Both the position numbers and the translations under genes were made by a program. The notes beneath the pieces were generated by a model. That model saw only the letters and a program-made list of their open reading frames with translations. It did not search any database and had not been told where the DNA came from. DNA of 64,000 nt from assembly GCA_964016885.1 (NCBI GenBank), contig OZ024742.1, positions 187,426,001-187,490,000 on the forward strand, read 5' to 3'. Shown here one piece after another: positions 145 through 61,700 of this stretch (positions are counted from its first letter, which is position 1; each line of letters opens with the position of its first letter). The stretch comes from Eledone cirrhosa (Eukaryota).

Positions 145-338
145 AACGAAGGAAATGTGGTAAGGAACCAAATGGGCCATAACGCACCAAAGTACTCAAC
201 ACTTAGGGTAGTAGAGTGGGTAATAGGAACGAGTAGGACCCCAACGGCTGAACTCTAGCCGTTTCGACGGCTAATTCTGTCCAGAATTAGCCGTCGAAAC
301 GGCTTGAGTTCAGCCGTCGGGGTCCTACTCGTTCCTAT
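145..338 (-). mobile_element. Penelope-like fold-back terminus, family A, mini copy (unpaired tail 145-222; inverted arms 223-279/282-338)
   Basis: ATAGGAACGAGTAGGACCCC...CTAATTCTG-TC-CAGAATTAG...GGGGTCCTACTCGTTCCTAT is self-complementary; flanked by (TA)n; same outer ends as the 31846-33560 copy; contains the 3' half of a hammerhead (GAAAC-stem III-GTC). Confidence 0.75.
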
Positions 339-1616
339 ATATATATATATATATATATATATATATATAAGAACGTTCCTATATATATATGTGTGCATTC
401 CTTCACACACTTAGTATTTTCTGGCATGGAGGCGATGCAATAAGAGATATGTAGAAAAGATAAGAGAAAGCATTACTATGGAATATATAGCGACATTTCA
501 TGAAAACCCTGCCAATGCTATTGAAACAAGTTTCACTACAGATGAACATGCATCGATTTCTCTACAACTTATAGTAATAATATATATTATATGTGTAAAA
601 GTTCGTAATTCATTTTTTAGTATTTATCAATGTCAACTTTACATGGCTTACTACTTAAAAGAAATGAAAGTTAGAATAAATGGAAATACATAGAAAAACA
701 CACGTTTATATATGTATACACACACAAACACACACACATACACACACACACACACATTCACACACACACACACACACACACACATATATATATATATAAA
801 TGTATCTGTGTGTGTGATGATGAAAGAAAGTTTTAGTATAAGTCGTAAATAACCGGGCAGTCCTACATTTATGTTCCAAATGTTATTTATTGAAATTTTA
901 GTCATACATTATGAAATTATAAATGCATTAAACAAAAGTTTAAAAAATATAACCATGGGTGATCACACACAAATAAGTGGATGTTAAAATATTATCTACA
1001 AACCTTGCTTTAAAAATGCATTGACTGCCCCGTTACTTATGGCTCATGCTGTATATTATGTAAGCTTCTGAGTCATTTTCATATATATCTAAGAAACCTA
1101 GGGTATGGACTAAAATACAATATTCTGACTATAACTTACATAATAGCATAATATCTCTAACTATATCTATCTCACAGCTTCTCCCTATATATATCCCGAA
1201 TAGAATTGTTGGGGGGGGGGGGTGACCACAGTAAATAATGTATGTATATATATATATATTTGGAGAGAGACTGTGTATATATACATGAGTATGTATAGAG
1301 ATTGAGCCTAGAAGGAGCAATTTCAGTTGGTCACGCAATGGTTCTATATTCCAATATTATTCTACCTAGTTGTCTTCTGTTAAATGTCGCAGGTGATTTA
1401 CAAATAATACATGTCGCAACACCCATTCACCAACATGCATTCAATAGTATGCATTCACAACCATGAATCAAACAACGTGCATTCAGCAGCACGTATTCTT
1501 TATTATTATGGAATATTTTGTGCGCCCGTAATATGGATATTGTTTAGGCAACACTATCGTACTGCTAAATATTATCTTTGCAAATGGGACGCCGAGATGC
1601 GTAATTTAATGTAATA

Positions 1617-2116
1617 TATGTATGTATGTATGTACATGTGTATGTATGTATATTTGTATGTGTGCATGTATGTACATGTGTATGTATGTTTGTATGTGTG
1701 AATGTATGTACGTACAGGTGTATGTACGTGTATGTATGTTTGTAAGTACATGTGTATGTATGTATGTTTGTATGTGTGAATGTATGTAATTACATGTGTA
1801 TGTATGTATATTTGTATGTGTGAATGTATGTACGTACATGTGTATGTATGTATGCATGTTTGTATGTGTGTATGTATGTTTGAATGTATGTATGTGTGAA
1901 TGTATGTATGTATGTGCGTGTGCGTGTATGTATGTGCGCATGTATATTTGAGTATATATGTATGTGTATATATATATATATATATATATGGTATCTCCCT
2001 CTCTCTCTCTCTCTCTCTCTCTCTCTCTCTCTATATATATATATATATATATATATATATATATATATATATATATATATATATATATACATATATATAT
2101 ATATATATATATATAC
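1617..2116. repeat. Compound microsatellite (TATG-derived, (CT)n, (TA)n)
   Basis: Directly visible; explains the overlapping YI/HT/ER ORFs. Confidence 0.95.
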
Positions 2117-3225
2117 AAGCGTGTGTATTTGACTTTTATATTCATAAATGTATAAATGCAGAACGTTTGTTGTTTGCAGGAACTAGCTTTGATAGATTAA
2201 TCATGGTTATTTCTAAAGGCAGGCATACTCTCTCATTCTTATAGAGAATGTCATCTAAGCTGCACCATTTCAACAAATATATCTCACTTGTACAGATTTC
2301 CTACTTCAGCTTCACCATTTCAATATATGCATCTTAGCGTCAGTTTGTAACTGTTTATAAATGGCTGCATCCTTGAGATTGCTGTAGGACTTTAACCCTA
2401 AAGCAAACCTATTCGCAGCTGTTCATTAACCCTTCGAACTGTGACCACTTCGTTCTTTTTTTTCAGGGGGAATGGCTTTAAACATTGTATGCTGTTACTT
2501 TTTTTTTATTTAACATATTAGGAAGTGTTTTGTGGCCGATTTGACTGCAATTTTTGGGCAGGTGGTTGAAGGTTTACGGAGAGAAAGAGAGGCGGGGCGG
2601 GAGGAATGGGGGACTGCCAGAAAGTGATTAAATGAGGTAGAGAGAGAGACTTCTTCGTACATAGATACATACAAAAATCTCCATTTTGGCTATAGTGTCC
2701 CGATATGTATTTGCGTGTGAATGAGTAGATATATATACGTCTATGTATGTGTGTGTGTTTATGTGTATGAGTATGTACGTTGTGAAACGTATAGCTACCG
2801 CAATTACTCAACTAAAACGGGCTTTGACCATAGCAAAGTGTTATTACCAGTGGTAAAGAAGATAAATAATTTCAATGATGTTTACGGAGATTTATGTCGA
2901 TGGGCGTTAGCATTTGATCAGATATAATCTTTACAAGTTCTAACACATTAGCTATCCTATATTGCTGGAAGCACACACACACACACGCACATATATATAT
3001 ATATATATATATATATATATATATATATATATATATATATATATATGTGTGTGTGTATATAAGAAAAACTTCTGTCCGAAACGTTGAAATCACCTCCACC
3101 CCCTCCAAACATGAACTTAATATAAATGTGTAATTTTACTTCCTGTGATTTGTTTTGATTCATTTAACTCTCCCCTCTCTCTCTCTTTATATATATATAC
3201 ATGTATATATATATATATATAAATA

Positions 3226-3281
3226 TAAGGGTGAAAGCAGCGATTCTTTGCTTAAACTTCAATCTGTTATTTTAATAAATA
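3226..3281 (+). mobile_element. Family D Penelope-like terminus fragment in (TA)n
   Basis: AAGGGTGAAAGCAGCGATTCTTTGCTTAAACTTCAATCTGTTATTTTAATAAATA matches 60573-60627. Confidence 0.7.
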
Positions 3282-4054
3282 TATATATATATATATATAT
3301 ATATATATATATATATATAATACATAAGCACAGACACACACACAAGTATATATATATGAGGGCTTGGGTGTGTGATTGCATATATAGCTATATATAGCTA
3401 TATATATATATATATATATATATATATATATATATATATATATATATATATATATATATATATATATATATATGTATATATATATAAAATAGTTAATAGA
3501 TATATATTATATATCAAGTAGTTCAGACGTATTACACCTGTATCTACTCCGATATACAGACGTGCACCCGCACCTAAATGTATAGACACACAATCATACA
3601 AGCACAGTCACACACACACACCTATCCACACACATAATCAGTTACGAATCAATAGAATTATAATTTATTTCAGAAAATAAAACGATCTATATAACAAATT
3701 ACTTGAATGTACATATATTACTATTTAAGCAAGCAAACTTCTGTCAGTTACATTGATATCGAGTTAGAACCTCGAAACCTGTCTTAACGCCAACAATGTT
3801 AAGTATGGAGGGACCCGTAGCTCCTTATTGAATCGTACGGCGTACCAATAGTATATTAAACCCGGGTGGGGGTGGGGATAGGGGGTGGGGGCTATCCCAT
3901 CCCTTAGTCTGAAGATTTGAACACTGCCGCTCTCTTGCATTTAATCTCAAAATATCTAAAACTTTCTAATTAAGATGTCTCCTGCTCTGAATTATTGAAT
4001 TATTAATATGATACACACACACACACACACACACATATATATATATATATATGA

Positions 4055-4228
4055 AATGATTGAGGACCCTGACGGGTGAGCTCCAGCGGTTTCGGATCTA
4101 TCCGTTTAAACGACCGGAGCTCAGCCGTCGGGGTTCTGAATCTTTTCCTATTACCCACTCTACTACCCCAAGTATCGAGTATTCTGTTGGGATATGGTCC
4201 ACCTCGTATTTTACTACACCCTTTCTGA
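4055..4228 (+). mobile_element. Family A-related fold-back terminus (diverged)
   Basis: GAGCTCAGCCGTCGGGG...CCTATTACCCACTCTACTA...AAGTATCGAGTA shared with family A; short inverted arm ~4063-4085; TA flanks. Further diverged relatives at ~4395-4530 (-) and ~5470-5600 (+). Confidence 0.65.
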
Positions 4229-60447: not shown

Positions 60448-60483
60448 ATATATATATATATATATATATATATATATATATAT

Positions 60484-60716
60484 ATATTTATTAAAATAAC
60501 AGATTCAAGTTTAAGCAAAGAATCGCTGCTTTCACCCTTGACGGGATATTCTGAGTTTCAGAAGATCCCGTTAAGGGTGAAAGCAGCGATTCTTTGCTTA
60601 AACTTTAATCTGTTATTTTAATAAATATTTGCGCTACGGTTCTTATATATTTGATATATATTTATCCTTATTGAGCTATCTTTGGATTTTAGTCTTCAAA
60701 TTTATTATTATTACTA
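60484..60716 (+). mobile_element. Family D fold-back (arms 60484-60554/60558-60628; tail to 60716)
   Basis: Self-complementary arms; tail shared with 15066, 22653 and 60905. Confidence 0.85.
60554..60604 (+). ncRNA. Hammerhead-like motif with A at core position 4 (second copy 61621-61671)
   Basis: AGTTT-CAGAAGA-TCCC(GTTAA)GGGT-GAAA-GCA(GCGATTCTT)TGC-TT-AAACT. Confidence 0.5.
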
Positions 60717-60759
60717 TATATATATATATATATATATATATATATATATATATATATAT

Positions 60760-60893
60760 ATATTTGTGTAATAATATTGCCAGAATTAATAACAGTTATT
60801 AATTCTGGCAATAATATTACACAAATATGACCCTCCCCAAGTATAACAATATTTGTTTCGACACGCGATTTCATATCAAAACCTCGCAAAACT
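60760..60893 (+). mobile_element. Small fold-back (34-bp perfect arms 60760-60828) plus tail, in (TA)n
   Basis: ATATTTGTGTAATAATATTGCCAGAATTAATAAC-A-GTTATTAATTCTGGCAATAATATTACACAAATAT. Confidence 0.75.
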
Positions 60894-60904
60894 ATATATA
60901 TATA

Positions 60905-61700
60905 TAGTAATAATAATAATTGCGAAGACTAAAATCTAAAGAGGGCTCGATAAGGATAAATATATATTTATTAAAATAATAAATTAAAGTTTAAGCAAAG
61001 AATCGCTGAAACTAAAAAAAAAAAATCAATCTGTGAACGCCAAAGTAAATATTTCGAAAAACGTTGCAACCGAAGGAAAACAGGAAGACGATACTTTGGT
61101 TCGCGAAGACGTTCTCTGGCTATGAACAGAAAAAAAGCGAATATAATACGTCGTTATGTCGAGCAGTGAGAACAATTACACGCAAAGACAAAATCACGTT
61201 TATTGTATAAATGGAGTCATTAGACTAATATTCTATTTTGGAAACCACATGGTTCTCAGCTTCGGAGTTAAGAAAAATATAAAAAAGATAGTTGAACGAA
61301 AATGACAGTGGTTATTAAAATCATAAAAATAATAATTGTTCTATTTTGGTACAAGGGCAGCAATTATTTCACTGTATTACTGGTACTTTATTTTATCGAC
61401 CCCGTAAGGATGAAAGGCAAAGTTAACCACATCTAAAAACGTGGTTTTCTCTTTGCGTGTAATTGTTTTCGGCACTGCACATAACGGCGTATTATCTTCG
61501 CTGTTTCCCTTTCATTGCCAGGGAATGTCTTCACGAACCAAAGTACCGTGTTCCTGTTTTCCTTCGGCTGCAACGTTTTTTGAAATATTTACTTCTGCGT
61601 TCACAGATTGATTTTTTTTTAGTTTCAGAAGATCCTGTTAAGAGTGAAAGCAGCGATTCTTTGCTTAAACTTTAATCTGTTATTTAAATATTTTAATAAA
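60905..61700 (-). mobile_element. Older, larger family D fold-back (arms ~60965-61188/61451-61690) with a SINE fragment (61330-61428) in the spacer
   Basis: Diverged inverted arms; the left arm lacks the hammerhead core segment. Confidence 0.75.

Follow-up and report, generated by a model that had tools for sequence, protein, structure and literature searches.

Palindromic Penelope-like inserts of Eledone cirrhosa have two fixed ends, which are probably two priming sites of reverse transcription

How can an insert whose two halves are inverted copies of each other have two different outer ends, both of them fixed? The question is raised by a stretch of 64,000 nucleotides of Eledone cirrhosa DNA (GenBank assembly GCA_964016885.1, contig OZ024742.1, positions 187,426,001 to 187,490,000 of the forward strand; hereafter the window), which carries short hairpin-like copies of three repeat families, A, C and D, in (TA)n runs. 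One arm of a complete copy continues into a tail, whereas the inverted arm is tail-less. A sequence-only reading of the window had taken these copies for Penelope-like elements (PLEs) and had proposed that cDNA synthesis starts at a fixed 3' end in the tail and snaps back at a variable point, and that the second strand is resolved at a defined site downstream of a hammerhead ribozyme. The element class proved right, and the mechanism was supported in part only. The two fixed ends are probably two priming sites of reverse transcriptase (RT); each arm would be a first strand, and the centre of the palindrome would be the join of two cDNA 3' ends that had mostly run off the start of the mRNA. Positions within an element are counted from the predicted hammerhead cut (coordinate 0), and the copies in the window are the following (Inr, initiator; SINE, short interspersed element).

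146 to 225, minus strand: family A tail of 80 nt that spans +97 to +18 and ends on (TA)n
226 to 279, minus strand: family A tail-bearing arm, stopping at -36
279 to 335, plus strand: family A tail-less arm, -39 to +17, 3 nt longer than the tail-bearing arm
31847 to 32725, minus strand: long family A tail-bearing arm, with the tail (31847 to 31926) and about 800 bp of 3' region
32730 to 33557, plus strand: long family A tail-less arm, ending with GTTCC on (TA)n
37801 to 37832, plus strand: solo family A tail-less arm, -14 to +17, with TA runs on both sides
16292 to 16557, minus strand: family C tail of about 95 nt (16292 to 16387) and tail-bearing arm, which stops on the A of an Inr-like TCACTG
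16581 to 16761, plus strand: family C tail-less arm with a CUGACGA hammerhead core, ending with GAATAA on (TA)n
23399 to 23578, minus strand: family C tail-less arm, beginning 1 nt inside the Inr-like TCACTG site
3226 to 3279, plus strand: solo family D tail-less arm, -27 to +26
15069 to 15150, minus strand: solo family D tail piece, +34 to +114
22654 to 22829, unstranded: minus-strand family D arm with tail, reaching about -36, and short tail-less arm ending at +22
60488 to 60714, unstranded: family D hairpin with tail-less arm 60488 to 60554 (to -41) and tail-bearing arm 60554 to 60714 (from -45, the Inr-like A)
60907 to 61708, unstranded: older family D hairpin with a deleted tail arm, tail-less arm 61437 to 61690 and a SINE-like repeat near the centre (61319 to 61430)

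The motifs named in the sequence-only reading were present at 14 of 14 coordinates, 0-4 nt from the true boundary; each boundary is uncertain by as much as 4 nt, since the next letters of the element (TAT) match the (TA)n target. Family A tails begin at 146 and 31847 and family A arms end at 335, 33557 and 37832, close to the positions that had been described. The arm lengths in the window, given as 57 and about 800 bp, were measured as about 55-60 and about 815 bp, and the 815-bp type is a minority among family A inserts. For family D, +26 stood as the usual arm end, whereas the copy at 22829 ends 4 nt earlier, at +22.

Exact matches were counted across the 3.0-Gb genome, with reversed sequences as controls. 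An internal 21-mer of family A gave 36,203 matches, a 25-mer of family D 26,867 and a 26-mer of family C 774, and each of the reversed controls gave 0. Family A loci were sampled by an internal motif, as first matches along contig C1, and also from random 10-kb stretches and as bystander copies. Among 155 arms so sampled, 74 ended at +17 and 63 at +97, both on (TA)n, and 18 elsewhere. At the family D arm site (n = 68), 20 arms stopped at +26 and 7 at +22, 26 ran on and 15 behaved otherwise, while 25 of 36 family D tails stopped at +114. Family C arms end at GAATAA and family C tails about 95 nt beyond, at TTTGGT. In the parent elements of families A and D the letters TAT come next after both fixed sites, and insertion into (TA)n was seen for copies of both families. 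Short-read contigs from run X1, which may be the assembly's own sample, showed (TA)n loose ends at the same fixed sites. The TA microhomology proposed for the fixed ends is supported. Adjacent inverted family A pairs consisted of one tail arm and one tail-less arm in 60 of 62 cases. Among 60 young loci only L239 and L240, a local tandem pair, share both flanks. The family-specific fixed ends of A, C and D are real genome-wide, and segmental duplication is not their source.

If the cDNA starts at the tail and then snaps back, the tail-bearing arm must contain the whole tail-less arm. This polarity is already ruled out for the first copy of the window, since the arm at 279 to 335 outreaches the arm at 226 to 279. 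Polarity was counted from direct tabulations of pairs and of central stops; a dynamic-programming junction caller, which over-extends at near-palindromic centres, served for coarse classes only, and family D polarity was judged at individual loci only. In 60 family A pairs the tail arm was longer in 23 and the tail-less arm reached further 5' in 28, with 9 equal, and asymmetries of at least 8 nt favored the tail-less arm by 15 to 6. Perfect copies of the youngest family A subfamily were further counted genome-wide at two mirror junctions. At -39/-36, 43 tail-longer copies stood against 66 tail-less-longer ones, at -40/-36, 52 against 35, and the pooled numbers were 95 and 101 (p = 0.72).

Mirror forms could also arise by later flips of the loop, and therefore age and strand switching were tested. 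The age of a copy was read from its 70-nt tail, which lay outside the search pattern, in the first 30 matches per search, two loci with indels being dropped; unmutated tails numbered 44 of 59 and 41 of 59 in the two polarity classes (p = 0.68). In 58 family A pairs, 39 rare variants were found on one arm only and none on both, whereas 94 recurrent minority alleles were common to both arms. As alleles are shared and rare variants are not, the arms come from one source element, yet without ongoing rewriting. The two arms might also have come from RNAs of different subfamilies paired at random, but this was rejected: an arm difference at a T/A site, seen early in a sample chosen by likeness to the window copy, was absent from an unbiased set. 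Moreover, in a set of 84 tail arms defined by an exact 33-mer, 6 end within the tail itself and are joined to the tail-less arm without any inverted repeat and with short microhomology at the join (L046, L088, L195, L307, L313 and L330). Family D inserts of this kind were found at L092, L148 and L195, and short-read contigs contained opposite-strand joints, e.g. from -45 to +65 (0 = 2190). Single cases could be central deletions after insertion. The model of a tail-first cDNA with snap-back and a cut second strand fails, and plain folding back of one arm to copy the other explains neither of them.

The central turning point, described earlier as variable, does vary, but its positions are strongly clustered. 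Of the 169 family A arms passing -33, 143 stop by -44 and 5 in the following 28 nt (0.118 vs 0.008 stops per nt); of 81 family D arms, 38 stop by -48 and 2 beyond (0.040 vs 0.002 stops per nt). Tail and tail-less arms behave alike at this wall in both families. In a tail-anchored family A set (n = 84), 48 arms stop from -33 to -44, 30 earlier and 6 further. Among the 28 family C arms scored, 18 of 20 short ones stop 0-8 nt inside the A of TCACTG, six of them exactly on this A. The walls coincide with motifs that we take to be TATA-like and Inr-like, going by the promoter consensus: TATTTAAA at -69, TTAGTC/TCAGTC at -40 and TCATTT at -44 in family A, TTAGTT at -45 in family D, and TATATAAA at -32, i.e. 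32 nt ahead of TCACTG, in family C.

Addition of a C opposite the RNA cap is a known property of RTs. An extra untemplated C was enriched at the wall, at positions picked post hoc: at -40 of family A, 10 C stood against 4 T, compared with 12 against 29 elsewhere (p = 0.010), and at -45/-48 of family D the C was present in 9 of 11 cases, compared with 2 of 19 (p = 0.0002). Tail-less arms carried it in 5 of 7 cases at A -40 and in 5 of 5 at D -45/-48. Jumps from the wall were also found. Locus L320 consists of four segments, every one stopping at -43, with two jumps to +213, and L311 jumps from -39 to +918. Passages of PMC3846280 note a TATA and TCACT pair in a pseudo-long terminal repeat (pLTR), and according to passages of PMC2377424 Penelope transcription starts in the pLTR. 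Away from the wall, 4 of 30 short tail arms (L264, L265, L318 and L327) end on the predicted ribozyme cut, at 0 to +2 (p = 0.014), and those of L305, L306 and L309 stop at +12, just beyond the second start site.

The assignment to PLEs was borne out by the parent frames with RT and GIY-YIG-like motifs found for two of the families. In the family A parent (L084) an inverted tail arm is combined with a partial tandem and with a stop-free frame of 786 aa, the unit being 3118 bp; the family D parent (L181) has a 712-aa stop-free frame and, by match spacing, a unit of 3258 bp. The two proteins are 54% identical. By eye, both contain YRDD, DKT in place of DKG (HSDKTGNLY), an N-terminal LRWR, a CxCX5C linker (CNCPDRSIC/CNCRNRADC), the GIY-YIG-like C-terminal motifs NVIY...AYIG and NIVY...AYIG with one Cys in the core, CxxC (CNLC/CDLC) and CxH (CKH), and no CCHH. 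PLE RTs form the sister group of telomerase. Self-alignments of L084 and L181 revealed a partial tandem forming pLTRs and an adjacent inverted 5'-truncated copy. Pfam returned no match for either frame. By these motifs, families A and D are recognised as PLEs of Hydra-clade type, and family C, for which an autonomous parent was looked for and not found, shares the same anatomy. Membership in Naiad/Chlamys was rejected, since these are marked by an N-terminal endonuclease and the lack of a canonical hammerhead, and the endonuclease motifs are C-terminal here. The inserts are members of a known element class, being 5'-truncated PLE copies, and the anatomy itself has already been published.

A hammerhead upstream of the arm end, which had also been claimed, is suggested by motifs seen by eye in families A and C:

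33452 to 33545, plus strand: family A type I hammerhead motif, with stem I ACCCC/GGGGT, core UUGAGAA (U3-A8 variant) and GAAAC; cut expected after C33540; TATA-like box at 33471; two Inr-like A residues within loop II, at 33496 and 33500

The U3-A8 variant of the core has been described (PMC4209133), and the CUGACGA core of family C is clear by eye. No hammerhead was among the 150 of 219 Rfam matches listed, and folding of four motif regions gave z-scores from -0.8 to +0.5, none significant. The idea that the second strand is cut at a defined site after the ribozyme did not hold. A constant distance from ribozyme to arm end had to be rejected, as the arm ends lie at +17 in family A, +22/+26 in D, about +55 in C and about +75 in a further family, E (see below).

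Taken together, the genomic predictions of two independently primed first strands agree with the copies, and this origin of the arms is likely on the sequence evidence. The GIY-YIG domain would nick both strands of a (TA)n target, and each nicked 3' end would anneal to UAU, at one site or the other, to prime RT. Both cDNAs would be copied from one RNA or one source element, because subfamily variants agree between the arms. Most cDNAs would stop at the capped 5' end of a transcript driven by the pLTR promoter, and the extra C would have been copied from the cap. The two cDNA 3' ends would then join head to head, with microhomology of 0-5 nt or a few extra bases at the joint, and long arms may have been copied from read-through RNA or reflect template jumps at the wall.

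Several observations weigh against this reading. The cause of the wall is derived from motifs and the RNA start site is a prediction; in family D no TATA box is clear, and by eye the core of the hammerhead departs from the canonical form (CAGAAGA, CUU). Family A stops are spread over 12 nt instead of a single base, A -44 shows the C in 1 of 8 cases only, and in 4 of the 10 cases at A -40 the C also belongs to the partner arm. Tail/tail inverted pairs, although rare, do occur (L270, and 1 of 30 loci in one mirror-junction sample), and the single mirror junctions depart from 1:1 in opposite directions (p = 0.035 and p = 0.086). Between the arms, 20 recurrent alleles differ, mostly at CpG-type sites, and the 3-nt arm difference of L100 is not CpG-type. 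Rare variants number 0.0074 per bp in arms and 0.0103 per bp in tails, a slight shortage that is due in part to the choice of loci by an exact arm motif. Deletions at palindrome centres after insertion would evade the homogenisation test, and most family A samples lie within the first 30 Mb of contig C1. Finally, the element PAc (Anolis Poseidon) works in vitro without homology between target and template, according to passages of PMC11167929, whereas TAT follows both sites here.

Among the alternatives is tail-first snap-back with additions: the second strand would be cut or joined after the ribozyme, and the copies with a longer tail-less arm would come from later loop flips or central deletions. 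It would account for the one-of-each ends, for subfamily variants common to both arms and for clean-looking junctions such as -44/-34, with 4 nt of microhomology and a 6-nt loop, and resolution of the PLE tail by a nuclease has already been proposed in passages of PMC8557442. At one mirror junction the tail-less-longer copies also appeared slightly older (17 of 29 vs 24 of 30 unmutated, p = 0.09), but the difference was reversed at the second junction and gone when both were pooled. Moreover, none of the 39 rare variants was copied across arms, large asymmetries favor the tail-less arm, solo tail-less arms and inserts without overlap exist, and tail-less arms meet the same wall with the same extra C, as first strands should. 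We consider this explanation unlikely.

A second alternative draws on family E, a non-coding tandem family with a unit of 591 bp and a U3-A8 type I hammerhead, present in the window as one copy:

15739 to 16291, minus strand: family E copy (591-bp hammerhead-bearing tandem family), at the end of the family C tail

This segment had been tried as the 5' body of family C, which was rejected when it turned out to be a separate family. It is flanked by an 81-bp piece of the family C tail in inverted orientation (15634-15714 vs 16292-16372, 100% identity), and L188 contains a perfect palindrome of tail, (TA)n and tail at 1157-1288. The family E loci L332-L358 were chosen for a near-full unit, with L332 and L336 counted as one array. 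Their copies are 99-100% identical and form dispersed head-to-head arrays with two fixed ends about 165 nt apart; an arm end at +23 was rejected in favor of the value given above. In 14 of 16 inverted pairs there was one end of each kind, the tail arm being longer in 7 and the tail-less arm in 7, and the 5' ends are scattered, without a wall. From its sequence, family E appears retrozyme-like and very young. Passages of a preprint on non-LTR retrozymes (bioRxiv 10.64898/2026.07.22.740005), to which the comparison is limited, likewise describe a non-coding tandem unit, a type I hammerhead and PLE-like ends, whereas the arrays of family E are dispersed, head to head and follow a two-end rule. 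They fit a circular or multimeric template and are compatible with snap-back, except for L339.

For the hairpins in general, synthesis could accordingly start at either site on a multimeric or circular RNA made by the hammerhead and snap back, the second strand being resolved at the other site and the wall being a pause site. Circular templates have been proposed for PLEs (PMC4209133). The multi-unit arms of family E, with their scattered 5' ends, point in this direction, in 13 of the 14 two-ended pairs of this family one arm lies within the other, and L084, L320 and L311 can be read in this way; the weak excess of tail arms stopping at the predicted cut (4 of 30) would also agree. However, the short family A hairpins are shorter than a unit, so that a tail-less first strand would have no tail to copy, and in L339 neither arm contains the other. 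Second arms of several units run past internal sites (L339, L343 and L352), and a pause leaves both the TATA/Inr coincidence in three families and the extra C unexplained. This explanation is improbable as well.

Self-priming on an antisense transcript, proposed in passages of PMC3846280 from junction palindromes for the head-to-head repeats of rotifer Penelopes, would suit the near-perfect palindromic centres seen here (9 of 60 pairs being equal), but it predicts neither two fixed outer ends with TAT target homology nor inserts without overlap nor a wall at sense-strand promoter motifs, and is very doubtful here. Segmental duplication, re-mobilised master hairpins or a long-read assembly artefact, which the frequent recurrence of identical junctions and the one local tandem duplicate (L239/L240) might suggest, are largely refuted by unrelated flanks, by many junctions per subfamily and the same junction across several subfamilies, and by short-read contigs with the same ends and opposite-strand joints.

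Two-site priming has a counterpart in LINE-1 (a long interspersed element). In its twin priming, a single RNA is the template for cDNAs primed by either strand of the target, and microhomology serves to join the products; the second primer uses variable internal sites, which results in an inversion with little overlap. In the present families, by contrast, 80-95 nt separate two fixed sites, and the cDNAs therefore overlap and form an inverted repeat. Neither twin priming nor a start-site wall for PLEs was found in a literature search, most subscription papers and supplements lying outside it. For PAc, passages of PMC11167929 report that in vitro both strands are nicked and extended and that two RT starts bound the tail, and propose a dimer model. 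Like the families studied here, PAc has an AT-rich target and RT start sites, putative in our case, that follow the hammerhead motif and lie close to the 5' end of the frame. PAc belongs to a different clade, and the same passages contain no account of inverted-arm formation and no stop wall.

Hydra-clade PLEs with a C-terminal endonuclease are described in passages of PMC8557442. They share with our parents a single frame with RT and endonuclease, DKT, the CxCX5C linker, C-terminal CxxC and CxH and the lack of CCHH, as well as the (TA)n target, the partial tandem, the inverted 5'-truncated arm and the one-sided tail, and they have a pLTR hammerhead, of which a putative motif, non-canonical in family D, is seen here; the likeness is one of motifs. 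RWK there corresponds to RWR here, a conservative change relative to Hydra. The elements described in those passages are generally smaller than 3 kb, whereas the present units are 3.1-3.3 kb; the printed PLE tails are 30-40 bp, whereas the one-sided tails here (60 of 62 family A pairs) are 80-95 nt across families; and short hairpin copies in tens of thousands are unlike that description. The whole of this anatomy, from the tail and the inverted truncated arm to the partial tandem and the (TA)n target, is in print in passages of PMC8557442, PMC3846280 and PMC2377424. Passages of an octopus repeat survey (PMC13282606) report active Penelope families and make no mention of hammerheads or palindromes.

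The origin of PLE inverted arms, tails and pLTRs is treated as an open question in passages of PMC8557442, PMC11167929 and PMC3846280. Tens of thousands of young copies allow their junctions to discriminate among the published PLE mechanisms. These junctions argue against tail-first snap-back with nuclease resolution and tie the two-start, two-strand result obtained in vitro to genomic anatomy. The reading with two primers, in addition, predicts exact RNA 5' ends, for which L084 and L181 are named full-length parents.

A wider view, which we offer tentatively and hold to be possible at best, is that PLEs replicate like long terminal repeat (LTR) elements without a tRNA, by target-primed reverse transcription at two fixed sites near the mRNA 5' end, the cDNAs running off the cap to become strong-stop DNA. 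Short hairpins would be failed strong-stops joined to each other, and full-length copies and pLTRs would result when a strong-stop jumps to a terminal repeat at the RNA 3' end. In family A the halves of the hammerhead core flank the predicted start site on either side, and in this model the downstream copy alone could cleave; downstream cleavage would set the RNA 3' end and a repeat of about 45 nt. The predicted family D start site lies upstream of its whole hammerhead motif. Jumps at the wall are seen in L311 and L320, and the seamless homologous jump and the role of the ribozyme are hypothetical parts of this view.

Further observations concern relatives and neighbours of these inserts. Older family A relatives lie at 4052-4228 (about 77% identical) and 5469-5599, with the longer tail end CCCTTTCTGA on (TA)n. 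More palindromic repeats, mostly adjoining (TA)n and probably representing further PLE families, are present in the window at 5848-6107 (with a CTGATGA core), 22852-23334, 29829-30420, 34781-34945, 60034-60404, 13861-13936 and 60764-60824. In L036, L316 and L217 the insert sits in (TA)n in the middle or at the end of a different palindromic repeat, and nesting into earlier PLE ends is common (L055, L112, L184 and L299). In family C, e.g. at 16626-16634, a splice-donor-like GAG/GTATGT about 35 nt past the predicted start resembles the Penelope 5' intron. Further Hydra-like and other PLE-like RT frames and, in L115, an LTR-retrotransposon-like pol frame were noted among the loci L082, L083, L085, L115 and L190. 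The SINE-like repeat of the window is about 200 bp long and occurs in more than 20 copies, partly in tandem, including 8479-8687, 17490-18558, 19861-20270, 48896-50578 and 55233-57654; a 50-bp stretch of the long family A arms (32900-32949) is 84% like its 3' end. Broken transposase-like frames and LINE-like fragments were recognised by eye at 11888-13722, 18515-19705 and 26742-27191.

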